Shown in pieces: positions 35,364 to 44,091 of a stretch of 64,000 nt of DNA. The notes under the pieces were generated by a model. It made no database searches and was not told the origin of the DNA. It worked only from the letters and a program-made list of their open reading frames with translations. Where the stretch lies: the NCBI RefSeq assembly GCF_054482525.1, contig NZ_CM137006.1, one strand, 5' to 3'. Numbering within the stretch: position 1 is the first letter of the stretch; each line of letters begins with the position of its first letter. The position numbers and the translations under genes are program-made.

Positions 35364-36145
35364 TGCTGGAAATACTCTATCAGGATGAATGGCTGGTTGC
35401 GGTAAATAAACCCTCCGGCTGGCTGGTTCACCGCAGCTGGCTGGATCGCGACGAGAAAGTAGTGGTCATGCAAACCGTGCGTGACCAGATAGGACAGCAT
35501 GTTTTTACTGCTCATCGTCTGGACCGACCCACTTCTGGTGTGTTGTTGATGGGATTATCCAGCGAGGCCGGACGGCTGCTGGCACAACAGTTTGAACAGC
35601 ACCAAATCCAGAAACGTTACCATGCGATTGTGCGCGGCTGGTTGATGGAAGAAGCGGTGCTGGATTATCCACTGGTGGAAGAACTGGACAAAATCGCTGA
35701 TAAATTTGCCCGCGAAGATAAAGGCCCGCAGCCAGCAGTGACGCATTACCGCGGTCTGGCGACCGTAGAAATGCCGGTAGCGACCGGACGTTACCCGACC
35801 ACGCGCTACGGCCTGGTGGAACTGGAGCCGAAAACCGGACGCAAACATCAGCTTCGCCGACATCTTGCCCATTTGCGCCACCCGATTATTGGCGATAGCA
35901 AACATGGCGATTTACGCCAGAATCGCAGCGGTGCTGAACATTTTGGTCTTCAGCGGTTAATGCTGCATGCCAGTCAGTTGTCATTGACGCATCCTTTTAC
36001 TGGCGAGCCGCTGACTATTCACGCGGGCCTGGACGACACCTGGATGCAGGCGTTATCACAATTTGGCTGGCGCGGTCTGCTTCCTGAAAATGAAAGGGTT
36101 GAGTTCAGTGCGCCATCGGGTCAGGATGGAGAGATAAGTTCCTAA
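35363..36145 (+). CDS. truC: tRNA pseudouridine(65) synthase
   Basis: 260 aa; RluA-family motif (HRLDRPTSG). Confidence 0.92.
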
Positions 36146-36162
36146 TCCAGGGAGAAAACGGT

Positions 36163-36612
36163 ATGGCGGAAATTGGTATTTTTGTCGGCACCATGTACGG
36201 AAATTCGCTGTTAGTGGCGGAAGAAGCAGAAGCAATTCTGACCGCACAGGGCCACAAAGCAACGGTATTTGAAGATCCTGAATTAAGCGACTGGCTGCCC
36301 TATCAGGATAAGTATGTTCTGGTGGTTACGTCCACGACCGGGCAGGGCGACCTTCCTGATAGCATTGTGCCGCTCTTTCAGGGAATCAAAGATAGTCTGG
36401 GCTTCCAGCCGAATCTGCGTTATGGCGTGATTGCGCTCGGCGACAGCAGTTATGTGAATTTCTGCAATGGCGGCAAACAGTTCGATGCCTTGTTGCAGGA
36501 ACAGAGCGCTCAGCGGGTTGGCGAAATGCTGTTGATTGACGCCAGTGAGAACCCGGAACCGGAAACGGAATCAAATCCGTGGGTCGAACATTGGGGCACG
36601 CTGTTGTCCTGA
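36163..36612 (+). CDS. yqcA: Flavodoxin-like protein
   Basis: 149 aa; flavodoxin fold signature (TSTTGQG). Confidence 0.88.
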
Positions 36613-36665
36613 TATGTTCAGCGAGCGGTAAATGCCGTTTTAGCGGTGCTGAATCGAATCTTTTC

Positions 36666-36720
36666 AGGCAAATGCCAGTAAAAACTGCTTCATAGCGCGG
36701 ATTTTTACTGGCGTTTGCCT
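36666..36720. repeat. Long inverted repeat (19-bp arms, 17-bp spacer) downstream of yqcA and upstream of gudP
   Basis: AGGCAAATGCCAGTAAAAA...TTTTTACTGGCGTTTGCCT; one G-U wobble if RNA. Confidence 0.6.
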
Positions 36721-37046
36721 GGAGTCAAGCGATCCATTTCATACTCTTCTTTATTTCTTCGTTTTAACCCTTCCTTTCTTGTTTTTGTTTTCATTTCCGT
36801 GAAGTGGATTCCACCGTCCAGGGCTAATGCCAAAATCGGGCCTCATTGAACGCATTAATGTTGTGTTGTTGCACGGTGAGCCGCTATGGCGCGCTTTTTA
36901 TACTGCTATTGCCAGATATAAACACGCGCCGTATTCGGCGAACGACCTATAAAAACGGCAAAAAACACCCTACGTCACCTCTGATTTCCTGGCGATGTCG
37001 CAGTCCAGAGTGAGCGTGGCTAACGCGAATTTTCAGGAGTGCAACA

Positions 37047-38399
37047 ATGAGTTCTTTAAGTCAGGCTGCGAGCAGTGTGGAAAAACGCACGAATGCTCGT
37101 TACTGGATAGTGGTGATGTTGTTTATCGTCACATCCTTCAACTACGGCGACCGCGCTACGCTCTCTATCGCCGGTTCGGAAATGGCCAAAGATATCGGCC
37201 TTGATCCTGTGGGAATGGGCTATGTGTTCTCTGCTTTCTCATGGGCTTATGTTATCGGGCAGATCCCTGGTGGCTGGTTGCTGGACCGTTTTGGTTCAAA
37301 ACGCGTCTACTTCTGGTCGATCTTTATCTGGTCGATGTTTACCTTGCTGCAAGGCTTCGTCGATATTTTTAGTGGATTCGGCATTATCGTTGCCCTGTTT
37401 ACGCTGCGCTTCCTGGTCGGGCTTGCTGAAGCGCCATCTTTCCCCGGTAACAGTCGCATTGTAGCGGCCTGGTTTCCGGCGCAGGAAAGGGGAACGGCGG
37501 TGTCGATTTTTAACTCCGCTCAATACTTCGCAACGGTGATCTTCGCGCCGATTATGGGCTGGCTGACGCATGAAGTGGGCTGGTCACACGTCTTTTTCTT
37601 TATGGGCGGTCTGGGCATTGTCATCAGCTTTATCTGGTTGAAAGTCATCCACGAGCCAAATCAACATCCGGGTGTAAATCAGAAAGAGCTGGAGTACATC
37701 GCTGCGGGTGGCGCGCTGATCAATATGGATCAGCAAAACACCAAAGTTAAAGTACCGTTCAGCGTGAAGTGGGGGCAGATCAAACAGCTGCTCGGGTCAC
37801 GGATGATGATCGGCGTTTATATCGGTCAGTACTGTATCAACGCCCTGACTTACTTCTTTATTACCTGGTTCCCGGTTTATCTGGTGCAGGCGCGCGGGAT
37901 GTCGATTCTTAAAGCGGGCTTTGTGGCTTCCGTTCCGGCGGTTTGCGGTTTTATCGGCGGTGTGCTGGGTGGGATTATTTCCGACTGGCTGATGCGCCGC
38001 ACGGGATCGCTGAACATTGCGCGTAAAACACCGATCGTAATGGGCATGTTGCTGTCGATGGTGATGGTGTTCTGCAACTACGTCAACGTTGAGTGGATGA
38101 TCATCGGCTTTATGGCGCTGGCCTTCTTCGGTAAGGGCATCGGGGCGCTGGGTTGGGCAGTAATGGCAGATACCGCGCCAAAAGAGATCAGCGGTCTTTC
38201 CGGTGGCCTGTTCAACATGTTCGGTAACATTTCTGGCATCGTCACGCCAATCGCAATTGGTTATATCGTTGGCACGACTGGCTCCTTTAATGGGGCGCTG
38301 ATTTATGTTGGTGTTCATGCCTTAATCGCGGTACTGAGCTACCTGGTGCTGGTGGGCGATATCAAGCGTATCGAGCTGAAACCTGTCGCGGGGCAATAA
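37047..38399 (+). CDS. gudP: Glucarate/galactarate transporter (MFS)
   Basis: 450 aa, 12 TM; first gene of gudPXD. Confidence 0.93.
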
Positions 38400-38400
38400 G

Positions 38401-39741
38401 ATGACGACACAATCCAGTCCTGTTATTACTGATATGAAAGTCATTCCGGTCGCCGGGCACGATAGCATGTTGCTTAATATTGGTGGGGCGCATAACGCAT
38501 ATTTCACTCGCAATATTGTGGTACTCACCGATAACGCCGGGCATACCGGCATTGGTGAAGCGCCAGGCGGAGAGGTGATTTATCAGACGCTTGTCGATGC
38601 TATTCCGATGGTTCTGGGCCAGGAAGTTGCGCGCCTGAATAAAGTGGTCCAGCAGGTGCATAAAGGTAATCAGGCCGCCGATTTTGATACCTTCGGTAAA
38701 GGGGCCTGGACCTTTGAATTACGCGTTAACGCCGTGGCGGCGCTGGAAGCCGCCTTGCTTGACCTGCTAGGTAAGGCGCTGAATGTTCCGGTCTGCGAAC
38801 TGTTAGGGCCAGGTAAGCAACGCGAGGCTATTACCGTCCTCGGTTATCTGTTTTATATCGGTGATCGGACCAAAACCGATCTTCCTTATCTGGAAAATAC
38901 GCTGGGCAACCATGAGTGGTATCAGTTGCGCCATCAGAAAGCGATGAACAGCGAAGCCGTTGTGCGTCTGGCGGAAGCCTCACAGGATCGCTACGGCTTT
39001 AAAGATTTCAAACTTAAGGGCGGCGTGTTACCTGGCGAGCAAGAAATCGACACTGTTCGTGCATTGAAGAAACGCTTCCCGGATGCGCGGATTACCGTTG
39101 ATCCCAACGGTGCATGGCTGCTTGATGAAGCCATTTCTTTGTGCAAAGGGCTGAATGATGTTCTTACCTATGCCGAAGATCCATGCGGCGCAGAACAGGG
39201 CTTCTCCGGACGTGAAGTGATGGCGGAGTTTCGGCGGGCGACCGGCTTGCCCGTCGCGACTAACATGATCGCCACCAACTGGCGCGAAATGGGCCATGCG
39301 GTAATGCTCAATGCGGTGGATATTCCACTTGCCGATCCGCATTTCTGGACGCTTTCCGGTGCAGTCCGCGTGGCGCAGCTTTGCGACGACTGGGGGCTGA
39401 CCTGGGGCTGCCATTCCAATAACCACTTTGATATCTCTCTGGCGATGTTTACCCATGTGGGCGCGGCGGCACCGGGTAATCCCACCGCTATCGATACCCA
39501 CTGGATTTGGCAGGAGGGCGATTGTCGCCTGACCCGAAATCCGCTGGAGATTAAAAACGGAAAAATTGCCGTTCCTGATGCGCCCGGTCTGGGCGTGGAA
39601 CTGGACTGGGAACAGGTACAAAAGGCACATGAGGCCTATAAACGTCTGCCTGGCGGTGCGCGTAACGACGCAGGCCCGATGCAGTACCTGATCCCCGGCT
39701 GGACCTTTGACCGTAAACGTCCCGTTTTCGGCCGTCATTGA
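38401..39741 (+). CDS. gudX: Glucarate dehydratase-related protein (enolase superfamily paralog)
   Basis: 446 aa; paralog of downstream gudD. Confidence 0.92.
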
Positions 39742-39761
39742 TTCTGAAAAAGGACATAAAT

Positions 39762-41102
39762 ATGAGTTCTCAATTTACGACGCCTGTTGTTACTGAAATG
39801 CAGGTCATCCCGGTGGCGGGCCATGACAGTATGCTGATGAATCTGAGTGGTGCACACGCACCGTTCTTCACGCGTAATATTGTGATTATCAAAGATAATT
39901 CTGGTCACACCGGGGTAGGGGAAATTCCCGGCGGCGAGAAAATCCGTAAAACGCTGGAAGATGCGATTCCGCTAGTGGTGGGTAAAACGCTGGGTGAATA
40001 CAAAAACGTTCTGACGCTGGTGCGTAATACATTTGCCGATCGTGATGCCGGCGGGCGCGGTTTGCAGACATTTGATTTGCGGACCACTATTCATGTGGTT
40101 ACCGGGATAGAAGCGGCAATGCTGGATCTGCTGGGGCAGCATCTGGGGGTTAACGTGGCATCCCTGCTGGGCGATGGTCAACAGCGTAGCGAAGTCGAAA
40201 TGCTCGGTTATCTGTTCTTCGTCGGTAATCGCAAAGCCACACCGCTGCCGTATCAAAGCCAGCCGGATGATAAATGTGACTGGTATCGCCTGCGTCACGA
40301 AGAAGCGATGACGCCGGATGCGGTGGTGCGCCTGGCGGAAGCGGCATATGAAAAATATGGCTTCAACGATTTCAAACTGAAGGGCGGTGTACTGGCCGGG
40401 GAAGAAGAAGCAGAATCTATTGTGGCACTGGCGCAACGCTTCCCACAGGCGCGTATTACCCTCGATCCTAACGGTGCCTGGTCGCTGAACGAAGCGATTA
40501 AAATTGGTAAATACCTGAAAGGTTCGCTGGCTTATGCAGAAGATCCGTGTGGTGCGGAGCAAGGTTTCTCCGGGCGTGAAGTGATGGCAGAGTTCCGTCG
40601 CGCAACTGGCCTGCCGACCGCAACCAATATGATCGCCACCGACTGGCGGCAGATGGGCCATACGCTCTCCCTGCAATCCGTTGATATCCCGCTGGCGGAT
40701 CCGCATTTCTGGACGATGCAAGGTTCGGTACGTGTGGCGCAAATGTGCCATGAATTTGGCCTGACCTGGGGTTCACACTCTAACAACCACTTCGATATTT
40801 CCCTGGCGATGTTTACCCATGTAGCCGCTGCTGCACCGGGTAAAATTACTGCTATTGATACGCACTGGATCTGGCAGGAAGGCAATCAGCGTCTGACCAA
40901 AGAACCGTTTGAGATCAAAGGCGGGCTGGTTCAGGTGCCGCAAAAACCAGGATTGGGCGTAGAAATCGATATGGATCAGGTGATGAAAGCCCACGAGCTG
41001 TATCAGAAACATGGGCTTGGCGCGCGTGACGATGCGATGGGAATGCAGTACCTGATTCCTGGCTGGACGTTCGATAACAAGCGTCCGTGCATGGTGCGTT
41101 AA
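39762..41102 (+). CDS. gudD: D-glucarate dehydratase (enolase superfamily)
   Basis: 446 aa from ATG at 39762 ([14 protein letters not shown]...); ORF track extension upstream overlaps gudX stop. Confidence 0.93.
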
Positions 41103-41115
41103 GACAGAAAACCAA

Positions 41116-41140
41116 AACCGGCTCTGTCAGGAGCCGGTTT
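41116..41140 (+). terminator. Putative gudD terminator
   Basis: AACCGGCTC-tgtcag-GAGCCGGTT 9-bp hairpin with short T-run. Confidence 0.5.
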
Positions 41141-41164
41141 GAGTCTGATGCCAAACGCAAAATT

Positions 41165-41192
41165 GCCTGTTGCGCTACGTATCAGGCCTACA
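41165..41192. repeat. REP unit
   Basis: GCCTGTTGCGCTACGTATCAGGCCTACA. Confidence 0.55.
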
Positions 41193-41228
41193 TTATTTTT
41201 TTAATTCATTGAATTTAATTGGTGTTTA

Positions 41229-41260
41229 TGCCGAATAAGGCGTTAACGCCGCATCCGGCA
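41229..41260. repeat. REP unit
   Basis: TGCCGAATAAGGCGTTAACGCCGCATCCGGCA. Confidence 0.55.
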
Positions 41261-41334
41261 TAAACACAGGCACCTTGTCACCAGTCTGAAACCAGCGTCA
41301 TAAAAAGCCGATTGCTACTCGGCAAGACGGTCCA

Positions 41335-44091
41335 TTACCCTAGAATTTTGCTGGCTTCGCGCGCTACATTATCCATCTCGTCCAACAGTTCCAGCAGCTC
41401 CGGCTCCAAATCTTCTTCTTTAGTACCGCTACGTAGCTGTTGTTCGATCAGTTGGCAGAGATTCTTCATACGCGGCACACCGCTATAGCCGCAACTGCCA
41501 TGCAGTTTATGAATCAAATCAACCAGGCCTTCCGGGTTTTCTCCAACCAGCTGTTCCTCAACTTTGTTGCGAACTTCAGGCAGGAAATCGAGTAACATTT
41601 GCAGCATATCGCGCGCTAAATCGGTTTTTCCTGCTGCCTGGCGTAGTGCCAGTTGCCAGTCGAGGGTCGCATTCGGGTTCACCACAATTTCGTTGACTTC
41701 GGGCGTCACGACGCGAGAGGAAATACCGCTGCCAGGCTTGTAGCGCAACAGCAAATTATGCAATCGCTCTTCTTCAATCGGTTTCGCCAGATAATCGCTC
41801 ATCCCTGCGCCAAGCAGCTTCTCTTTTTGCCCGGCCATTGCATGCGCCGTTACCGCGATAACTGGCGTTTGTTGCTGATGGGGGAGCTGGTGGATGAGTT
41901 CGCAGGCCCGAATGCCGTCCATGTCCGGCATTTGAATATCCATTAAGATCAAATCGAACGGCATCTGTTTCGCCCGTTCAACCGCCTGATGCCCGCTATC
42001 GCAAAGTTCCACATGTTGCACCATATCTTCCAGCAATGCGCCGATAAGTTTCAGGTTAGCGGGGTTGTCATCAACCGCCATGACTGTCATTGCCAGCTTA
42101 CTTTCATCGGTTACAGGCAAAAGCGTGTTTTGTTTGTGATGACAAAATTCCGTCAGGGCAGGTAACAGGCGCGTAGGTGTTAATGGTTTCAGCAGACACG
42201 CGCCGATACCATCTTGCTTAAGTTTTTCAGCATTGACTTGTGCATGGCAAGGAAGTGCCAGCATGAGAAAATCGGTCATCGATACCGCTTTCGCTAATCG
42301 CTCATGTTGCATTGTTAGCGGCTCGCGGAAGGTCACCGCAATGCCTAATAACATCATGTCGTAATGCGCGGGAGGCAGCGCGGAGAACGTTGGGCTATAA
42401 ACCACTTCCAGCGGCGTTTCACTTAAAATATCCAGCGTGCATTGCGCTGCTGCGGAGTTTGGTTCGACATAGGCCAGGCGCTTGCCGGCGAGGCACTGGG
42501 TGGATGGCCCTTCGATAATAATGTTCGGGTTCAGATCGAGATTAATGTGGAACCAGAAAGTTGAACCGCGATTCGGCTGGCTATGGAACGAAATATCGCC
42601 GCCCATTTCATTAACCAGTTTTTGTGTAATCACCAGCCCCAGCCCGGTGCCACCATGACGGCGGGAAATACTGGCATCAGCCTGTCGGAAGGCCTGGAAT
42701 AAGCGCGATTGATCGCGTTCAGGAATACCAATGCCGGTATCCCGAATCTGCACTTCAATCTGAACTTTGGTATTACTCAGCGCACGTTTTTCTACCAGAA
42801 TATCAATGTTGCCATTCTCGGTGAATTTAATTGCATTCCCTACCAGGTTAGTGATGATTTGCTGTAATCGCAGTGGGTCGCCAATTACGTTATCGGGCAC
42901 GTCGCTCTTAATATTGAGCGTCAGTTCCAGCCCTTTATCGTGAGAAGAATGTGCCAGCAGGGTAACTACTTCATCCAGCGTGCTGCGTAGTGGGAATGGA
43001 ATACTTTCCAGAATCAGCTTACCTGCTTCCAGTTTCGAGAAGTCGAGAACATCATTAATAATTGCCAGCAAATTATTTGCCGAACGTTCAATCGTATTCA
43101 GGTGATCGCGCTGCGTTGGTGTTAATTCTGTTTTCAGCGTCAGGCGGGTAAAGCCAATAACACCATTCAGTGGTGTACGCAGCTCGTGTGACATATTTGC
43201 CAAAAACTCGGATTTAATACGCGCCGCTTCCTGGGCGCGCTTTTTCGCCAGATCCAACTCAACGTTCTGAATTTCCATCTGCTCCAGCGTTTCACGCAGA
43301 TCGGACGTCGCCTGGTCGATATTGTGCTGCATCTCTTCGTGATAAGCAGCCAGCGACATTGCCATCGAGTTGATACCGTTTTTCAGCATATCCAGCTCGC
43401 CGAGCATAAATCCTTCCACCCGGCTGTCGAGTTGCCCGCGACGGATGCGGTCGACGGTATTCACCATATTGCGAATCGGACCGGTTACATCGCGCATTAA
43501 GCGCCAGCCAAAAATAAGCGCAATACCGATACAAAACAGCATCATCACGCTGGAAATAAAGATCTCTTTATATTGCTGCAAGCGAACCGATTTAAGATCC
43601 AGCTCAAGCGCAATATATCCCAACATATTTTGACTATTTTTGGCATCGCTACTGGGCGATTCGTCGGGGGAGTAACTCTCAGAAATAATCGGCGTGCGGA
43701 GGATCATAATATCGCCGTCACGAGTGACAGTGAGCTGGCGAGGAAACGGCACGTTGCTGCCGAGCTGCATTGATGAGGGATCAAGATGAAAATTGGAGGT
43801 GACAAAGAGTCGGTTATTTTCATCATAAACCGAAATCGCGCGAACAATATCGGAATGGCGACGATGCAGTACGCTTATTAACTGACCGATAGATTCGCGA
43901 TTTTGCAGGCTCATGCCATATTCAGTAGAAACTGCAAGCGGCTCAATAATGCTGGCACCGGCATCTTCCAGTTGACGCTGCAAGTCGTTATAGCGATGCA
44001 CAACGAAAAAGATACTCAGCAATAAACCAATAAGGACGGTCGGTGCCAGGATCAGAATCATCATGCGTGCGCGCAGGCTGTAGTTGGTCAT
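41335..44091 (-). CDS. barA: Hybrid sensor histidine kinase BarA (partner of UvrY)
   Basis: 918 aa; two N-terminal TM segments, HAMP, HisKA H-box (SHELRTPLN), HATPase, receiver and HPt domains. Confidence 0.95.

Follow-up and report, generated by a model that had tools for sequence, protein, structure and literature searches.

The gudX-gudD gene pair of Escherichia coli raises the question of what GudX, the product of its first gene, does beside the D-glucarate dehydratase GudD. In the gudPXD pathway GudP imports D-glucarate, GudD dehydrates it to 5-dehydro-4-deoxy-D-glucarate, and GarL, GarR and GarK act thereafter; GudD accepts either D-glucarate or L-idarate as the substrate from which this product is made. 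We analyzed the pair within a window of 64,000 nucleotides, the whole stretch of DNA considered here, from an E. coli chromosome (RefSeq assembly GCF_054482525.1, contig NZ_CM137006.1). We are nearly certain that the feature corresponds to gudX and gudD of the gudPXD glucarate operon of E. coli and that these genes are ancient paralogues. This is known biology: the pair itself, the weak activity of GudX, and crystal structures of GudX both on its own and in complex with GudD have been public for years.

The locus comprises three co-directional open reading frames on the plus strand. The first gene of the operon, gudP (37047-38399), is an open reading frame for 450 residues and encodes an MFS glucarate/galactarate/glycerate transporter, which scores 539 bits against TIGR00893. 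A single nucleotide lies between its stop codon and the ATG of gudX (also ygcY or GlucDRP; 38401-39741), which encodes a GlucD-family paralogue of 446 residues. It is followed by a spacer of 20 nt (39742-39761, plus strand) that carries a Shine-Dalgarno-like AAAGGA 5' of the gudD ATG, and then by gudD itself (39762-41102), whose 446-residue product is D-glucarate dehydratase with the sequence of PDB 1ec7. The true start of gudD is the ATG at 39762, with AAAGGA ahead of it; the mechanical list of reading frames extends the gene to a TTG at 39738. At the same coordinates RefSeq annotates gudP, gudX ('enolase C-terminal domain-like protein'), gudD ('glucarate dehydratase') and also barA. E. coli chromosomes match this 4.4-kb stretch with 100% identity, and 5408 of the 5426 complete genomes of the species carry it. 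The window represents an E. coli strain other than K-12 (five genomes match it at 99% or above, most at 95-99%), with no substantive difference between the two. Between the convergent gudD and barA genes, 13 nt past the gudD stop, a GC-rich hairpin with a stem of 10 pairs (41115-41140) is likely the operon terminator, a call made from its position because terminator-like sites in this region are no more numerous than the shuffled expectation. The promoter and terminator scan gave counts not above that expectation and found no consensus sigma-70 site upstream of gudP, and the sole match in an Rfam scan of positions 36000-42000 was a REP-like naRNA4 below threshold.

Both proteins belong to the glucarate dehydratase family, in the mandelate-racemase subgroup of the enolase superfamily. 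BLASTP aligns them with 283 identities over 448 positions (63%, with 78% positives, 590 bits and E = 0), and in a global alignment 283 of 443 positions (63.9%) are identical, which is far beyond chance and clear of the 40% that the earlier note had named as the lower limit for its claim of two adjacent 446-residue paralogues. The long identical blocks quoted in support of that claim are present in both proteins. The first spans 28 residues (39169-39252 in gudX, residues 257-284; 40533-40616 in gudD, residues 258-285; both on the plus strand), sits between metal-ligand strands two and three and contains Glu259 and Glu265 of GudX, equivalent to Glu260 and Glu266 of GudD, while the second spans 11 residues. 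The genes share 64.9% of their nucleotides, with 71%, 82% and 42% identity at the first, second and third codon positions respectively, and Nei-Gojobori estimates give a pS of 0.70, a saturated dS of about 1.97 and a dN of 0.30. Synonymous differences are frequent between the two copies of the 28-residue block, the fraction of identical residues encoded by the same codon is 0.37-0.40 in windows over the block versus 0.47 gene-wide, and the longest perfect nucleotide run between the genes is 20 nt. Gene conversion or a recent duplication as the source of the block was rejected on these grounds: it has no excess of shared codons, and so it is conserved at the protein level only. The eroded third positions, the saturated dS and the lack of a conversion signal, together with the separate clade that GudX forms, bear out the proposal that the duplication is ancient.

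The earlier note had also described the duplication as mirrored in near-identical spurious antisense reading frames. This holds for one pair on the minus strand, 39168-39485 within gudX (105 residues) and 40532-40885 within gudD (117 residues), whose translations are 78.6% identical over 103 residues; the other long minus-strand pair, 39028-39738 and 39972-40751, reaches only 45%. Since the third codon base of the antisense frame is also the third base of the sense codon, synonymous changes in the sense strand are mostly synonymous in the antisense one too. Over the whole ungapped segment this wobble-coincident frame shows 61.7% identity versus 67.3% for the sense frame and 32-41% for the other frames, and its translated identity tracks that of the sense frame along the whole gene, with 8-9 stop codons inside. 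The antisense frames were rejected as genes because their identity follows the sense frame and because of these stops; they are a reading-frame artefact, a by-product of sense-strand conservation.

The distribution of the pair was assessed in a comparative scan of 100,044 species genomes, which returned 80 loci. The order gudP-gudX-gudD holds in Enterobacterales, Orbaceae and Pasteurellaceae, with GudX orthologues 71-98% identical to the GudX of the window and GudD orthologues 76-99% identical to its GudD; one Pasteurellaceae locus (L034) carries the gudX-gudD tandem. Overall, about 26 of the roughly 29 loci with a GudX gene have gudD directly after gudX. The two genes have been passed down together as neighbours, and GudX forms a distinct and strongly conserved subfamily whose gene has stood beside gudD at least since the ancestor shared by Enterobacterales, Pasteurellaceae and Orbaceae. 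The GlucD-related protein of Actinobacillus succinogenes (PDB 3N6H, 3N6J and 3PFR), from a different order, is a GudX orthologue that, at 71-74% identity, matches GudX better than E. coli GudD does, which places the GudX subfamily in Pasteurellaceae. A single GlucD was found in Pseudomonas, Acinetobacter, Bradyrhizobium, Burkholderiales, Bacillus, Paenibacillus, Saccharopolyspora and a Verrucomicrobia MAG; these single-copy proteins are 69-77% identical to E. coli GudD and only 63-66% to GudX, so that the closer counterpart of E. coli GudD is GlucD from other phyla and not its own neighbour. Lucifera butyrica (locus L059) has, as in E. coli, two adjacent GlucD-family genes after a gene for a GudP-like transporter (gudP-glucD'-glucD); its upstream copy falls outside the GudX clade and therefore represents a separate, independent duplication. 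A natural GudX-GudD chimera was observed in Pantoea stewartii, in which residues 1-260 are of GudX type and residues 261-445 of GudD type.

In a neighbour-joining tree of 72 sequences, GudX forms a clade with 100/100 bootstrap support that is separate from all canonical GlucD, and the branching of its subtree mirrors that of the partner GudD sequences. When 19 more distant family members were added, the GudX clade retained bootstrap values of 96 (Kimura) or 91 (gamma) and branched outside the canonical GlucD group, a deep placement obtained by neighbour-joining from saturated distances in trees where the monophyly of canonical GlucD has a bootstrap of 22 or 2 with the divergent sequences included. 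In the gene tree, the split between GudX and GudD would then sit below the radiation of canonical GlucD across phyla, deeper than the earlier note implied. Tajima relative-rate tests with 15 distant outgroups gave 12-31 sites unique to GudX versus 19-28 unique to GudD, all non-significant (chi-square below 3.84), and with canonical GlucD of other phyla as reference the counts were 62-79 for GudX and 31-37 for GudD. The description of GudX as a fast-evolving recent duplicate is unsupported, given the balanced rates over the 15 outgroups and matched-species distances only about 1.2 times those of GudD (1.36 times for GudP).

Purifying selection acts on the two paralogues to a similar degree. In comparisons of E. 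coli with nine taxa, ranging from another strain of the species as far as Budvicia, dN/dS was 0.023-0.090 for gudX, 0.010-0.107 for gudD and 0.009-0.105 for gudP, and over 26 matched species 207 of 443 columns are invariant in GudX and 218 of 443 in GudD. By these measures GudX is constrained as tightly as GudD and more than GudP, and it is not a decaying copy. In a mirror-tree analysis the correlation between GudX and GudD distances was 0.92, with a partial correlation of 0.65 given GudP; this is suggestive of co-evolution between the two proteins and short of decisive, because paralogues share constraints.

With regard to family assignment, the NCBIfam equivalog model TIGR03247 has a curated cut-off of 828.7 bits for the whole-protein score, and GudD passes it with 899.3 bits whereas GudX falls below it with 749.2 bits. 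GudX should thus be classed as a paralogue within the GlucD family and not as a glucarate dehydratase, in agreement with its designation in the PDB as 'GlucD-related protein' and with the starting view that only GudD is known to be efficient and that the role of GudX is not settled. GudX is 99% identical to PDB 4il0 and to chains C and D of 4gyp; the E. coli K-12 protein in these entries (GudX, YgcY or GlucDRP) is the same protein, with 99% identity over 446 residues, and its gene also lies between gudP and gudD. Entry 4GYP holds both proteins, as the GudD sequence is also contained in it, and its title as given by Foldseek is 'heterotetrameric complex of GlucD and GlucDRP from E. coli K-12 MG1655'. 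The gudD gene of the window encodes the E. coli enzyme of PDB entries 1EC7-1ECQ, 1JCT and 1JDF. An AF2 model of GudX (pLDDT 90.2, pTM 0.91) has the two-domain fold of the superfamily, a capping domain and a modified TIM barrel, and Foldseek matches it to 4gyp, 4il0 and 1ec7 with TM values of 0.93-0.97. The only disordered internal segment of the model, residues 95-106 (pLDDT below 50), would be a mobile flap, as this low confidence is taken to indicate. GudX is like the GudD structures in fold (TM 0.95-0.96, rmsd 1.5-1.6 Å), in length and in all catalytic and ligand residues, and unlike GudD in 36% of its sequence, in its TIGR03247 score and in 13 fixed differences that include the lid, the 20s loop and S338C.

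The active sites of the two proteins were compared using the site numbering of E. coli GlucD after Gulick et al. (2000/2001) and UniProt, namely H32, T103, Y150, F152, K205, K207, D235, N237, E260, E266, N289, D313, H339, S340, N341, D366, H368 and R422. The residue types at these 18 positions were checked and agree. The acid/base catalysts of GudD are Lys207 and the His339-Asp313 pair, with Asp235, Glu260 and Asn289 as Mg2+ ligands. All 18 positions are kept in GudX, and they are invariant in 28 of 28 GudX-clade sequences. The KxK motif (K205/K207 of GudD) reads FKLKGG in both proteins and is invariant in the 28 GudX-clade and in 43 of 43 GlucD sequences, and the His-Asp dyad (H339/D313), N341, D366 and the three Mg2+ ligands are likewise invariant in both clades. 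Glu266 is invariant as well, so any doubt over the numbering of the metal ligands is immaterial.

The differences between the clades lie around this conserved core. Thirteen positions separate the 28 GudX-clade from the 43 GlucD sequences with at least 90% conservation on each side, namely, from GudD to GudX, L28I, S29G, an inserted residue 89 (part of a two-residue insertion at 89-90), Q102W, D105E, a two-residue deletion after R108, H111N, T114A, Q140K, D294N, S322A, S338C and G418P; at 16 positions the residue sets of the two clades are fully disjoint. The clade-splitting positions are grouped around Thr103 in the lid, by His32 in the 20s loop, beside the catalytic His339 and near Arg422. 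In gudX the lid-loop codons occupy 38683-38730 on the plus strand (residues 95-110) and place W103, E106, the two-residue deletion and N110 around the substrate-binding Thr104. Sequence entropy in the lid is 0.04-0.20 within GudX versus 0.11-0.23 within GudD. Expressed in GudX numbering, the signature of the clade consists of I27, G28, the insertion 89-90, W103, E106, the deletion after R108, N110, N293, A321 and C337, and the GudX of the window has every one of these features, a partly circular result as this protein belongs to the set (28 GudX-clade versus 43 GlucD sequences) that defines them. The 20s loop of GudX is changed by L28I, S29G and P34A. Two PDB entries, 3PWG (S29G/P34A) and 3PWI (P34A), contain mutants of E. 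coli GlucD; the substitutions are swaps from GudD to GudX at positions that we found independently, which means that earlier workers already suspected the 20s loop.

Considering these results, GudX could be a partner subunit of GudD, intact in its catalytic residues and changed in its lid, a role to which we assign slightly less than an even chance; the explanation as a whole, in which the identity and paralogy of the pair are blended with this role, we regard as moderately probable. The co-transcribed GudX and GudD would assemble into mixed GudX2-GudD2 tetramers, by analogy with the complex crystallized in 4GYP, and within them GudX would bind substrate and be competent in catalysis, and its altered lid may confer kinetics or a stereo-preference unlike those of GudD. 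Both the heteromer as the physiological form and the contribution that GudX makes to it are inferred, since a co-crystal is no proof that the complex occurs or is of importance in the cell.

An active site and a GudX-specific lid that are both strictly invariant would be expected of an enzyme with a substrate of its own no less than of a partner subunit. GudX could accordingly be read as an independent acid-sugar dehydratase or epimerase, acting for example on another hexarate stereoisomer and feeding its product into the same downstream pathway, with the heterotetramer being incidental; we consider this unlikely, though it is the main rival. Capping-domain loops set specificity in the enolase superfamily. 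The dN/dS of gudX equals that of gudD, and GudX outscores GudD on several other acid-sugar dehydratase models, among them TalGalacDh (63 versus 36 bits) and ManD (53 versus 26 bits). In addition, a GudX-clade gene occurs without gudD within 4 kb in Halomonas eurihalina, beside kdgD and the genes of a TctCBA transporter (kdgD-gudX-tctCBA), and in Paludibacterium yongneupense (garK-gudP-gudX); these GudX-only clusters suggest that GudX can work alone. An independent role is harder to reconcile with the direct adjacency of gudX and gudD in nearly all GudX-bearing loci and with the co-crystallization of the two proteins as a heterotetramer. No substrate is on record for GudX, its PDB entries continue to bear the name 'related protein', and Hubbard et al. 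(1998, Biochemistry 37:14369) reportedly found only a weak, strongly impaired GlucD-type activity for GlucDRP.

Returning to GudX as the partner of GudD, a more specific proposal is that gudPXD encodes a dehydratase complex with two specificities, in which the GudD sites would handle D-glucarate and the GudX sites would serve another hexarate stereoisomer or regulation. Here the GudX sites would share the chemistry of GudD and differ in their invariant lid, with W103, E106 and the shortened loop. We put this forward as a speculative and rather improbable version. If true, it would explain the adjacency of the pair and the equal purifying selection on its members across three orders, and would give a function to a paralogue that has been an orphan for 25 years.

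Two further readings fit the conservation pattern poorly. GudX might be a redundant, weak back-up glucarate dehydratase kept by hitch-hiking in the operon, as its GudD-like fold and catalytic residues and its high, albeit sub-cut-off, TIGR03247 score would allow; such hitch-hiking leaves unexplained a dN/dS of 0.02-0.09 across orders, a number of invariant columns close to that of GudD and a frozen GudX-specific lid, and we judge it very unlikely. A pseudoenzyme role, in which GudX has no catalysis of its own and serves GudD purely as a scaffold or regulator, would be compatible with the heterotetramer structure and with the reportedly impaired GlucD activity; it is scarcely credible, as pseudoenzymes as a rule lose catalytic residues and here all 18 active-site positions persist in 28 of 28 orthologues.

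Our literature search returned nothing on GlucDRP and almost nothing specific on gudX. A Tn-seq study of Dickeya solani (PMC10202176) lists gudP, gudX, gudD and garL as needed on galactarate. The genes of this organism are arranged gudP-gudX-gudD-garL-garR-garK in one direction, and garD is also present. Because gudX lies upstream of gudD-garL-garR-garK in a single transcriptional direction, polarity explains the galactarate result, and with gudX insertions likely polar and garD present we set this study aside as evidence for the function of GudX.

The use of glucarate and galactarate supports the growth of enterobacteria in the gut and in plant lesions, and in this respect the role of GudX matters modestly. 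For the family, GudX is a clean case of a paralogue with a perfect active site and no known efficient substrate, and the Pantoea stewartii chimera offers a ready-made domain swap between GudX and GudD. The question of what GudX does is now narrowed to a selected, ancient subfamily whose differences from GudD concentrate in the lid and beside the catalytic residues, and for which GudX-only operons exist.

A single gene of the GlucD family, encoding 445 residues, follows gudP in Pantoea stewartii subsp. stewartii CCUG 26359 (locus L032, 4001-5338, + strand; NZ_VZPF01000011.1; here and below, locus coordinates are those of the locus itself). Using the paralogues from Pantoea sp. IMH as references, we determined identity by residue range and found this gene to be a natural GudX/GudD chimera. 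Residues 1 to ~260 are GudX-like, with 70-97% identity to GudX against 33-80% to GudD, and residues ~261-445 are GudD-like, with 93-100% identity to GudD up to ~380 and 72-82% thereafter, against 45-88% to GudX. The crossover lies within or adjoining the 28-residue block common to both paralogues. The chimera probably originated as a deletion, through recombination between tandem gudX and gudD copies.

In locus L028, titled Escherichia coli strain SCPM-O-B-8794, the products of gudP, gudX and gudD share 98-99% protein identity with those of the window, and dS is ~0.34-0.41 across the three genes, which is large for a core locus within one species. This record may come from an Escherichia lineage that is divergent or cryptic; alternatively, it may contain a recombinant locus.

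The noncoding flanks of gudPXD in the window were also inspected. The 434-bp region between yqcA and gudP (36613-37046) contains a long T-rich tract, and a promoter scan of its + strand found no consensus sigma-70 promoter, in agreement with what would be expected of an activator-dependent promoter; CdaR is presumably the activator of gudPXD. On the other side, between the convergent gudD and barA genes, a 27-nt imperfect palindrome resembling a REP element (41222-41267) displayed a weak Rfam match to the REP-derived naRNA4, its 29.9 bits being below the gathering score of 59.5. Two long, stop-free antisense ORFs lie on the - strand, one of 236 aa opposite gudX (39028-39738) and the other of 259 aa opposite gudD (39972-40751). 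Both are in the frame exactly codon-complementary to the gene they oppose, with 45% identity between the two; they showed no sign of being protein-coding and are shadow ORFs of the kind typical of highly biased coding sequence.

GudX-clade genes with no gudD inside 4 kb, a distance assessed at the locus only, were found in Halomonas eurihalina (L041, 2866-8522), where the gene is flanked by a KdgD-like (DapA-family) gene on one side and tctC/tctB/tctA-like transporter genes on the other, and in Paludibacterium yongneupense (L030, 1344-5335), where the order is glycerate kinase, gudP and the GudX-clade gene. In the Proteobacteria MAG ZJ4.bin29 (L039, 3917-6704) a deep-branching GudX-clade gene (69% identical) and a GlucD gene stand in tandem; this GlucD clusters with those of Pseudomonas and Paraburkholderia, not with enterobacterial GudD, and thus X-D adjacency occurs beyond the group of Enterobacterales, Pasteurellaceae and Orbaceae. 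A second tandem, independent of gudX-gudD, is that of Lucifera butyrica (Negativicutes; L059, 1058-5323), in which a gudP-like gene is followed by two GlucD-family genes whose products show 69% and 76% identity to E. coli GudD. Given that the trees place the upstream copy of this separate pair outside the GudX clade, tandem GlucD pairs arose more than once.
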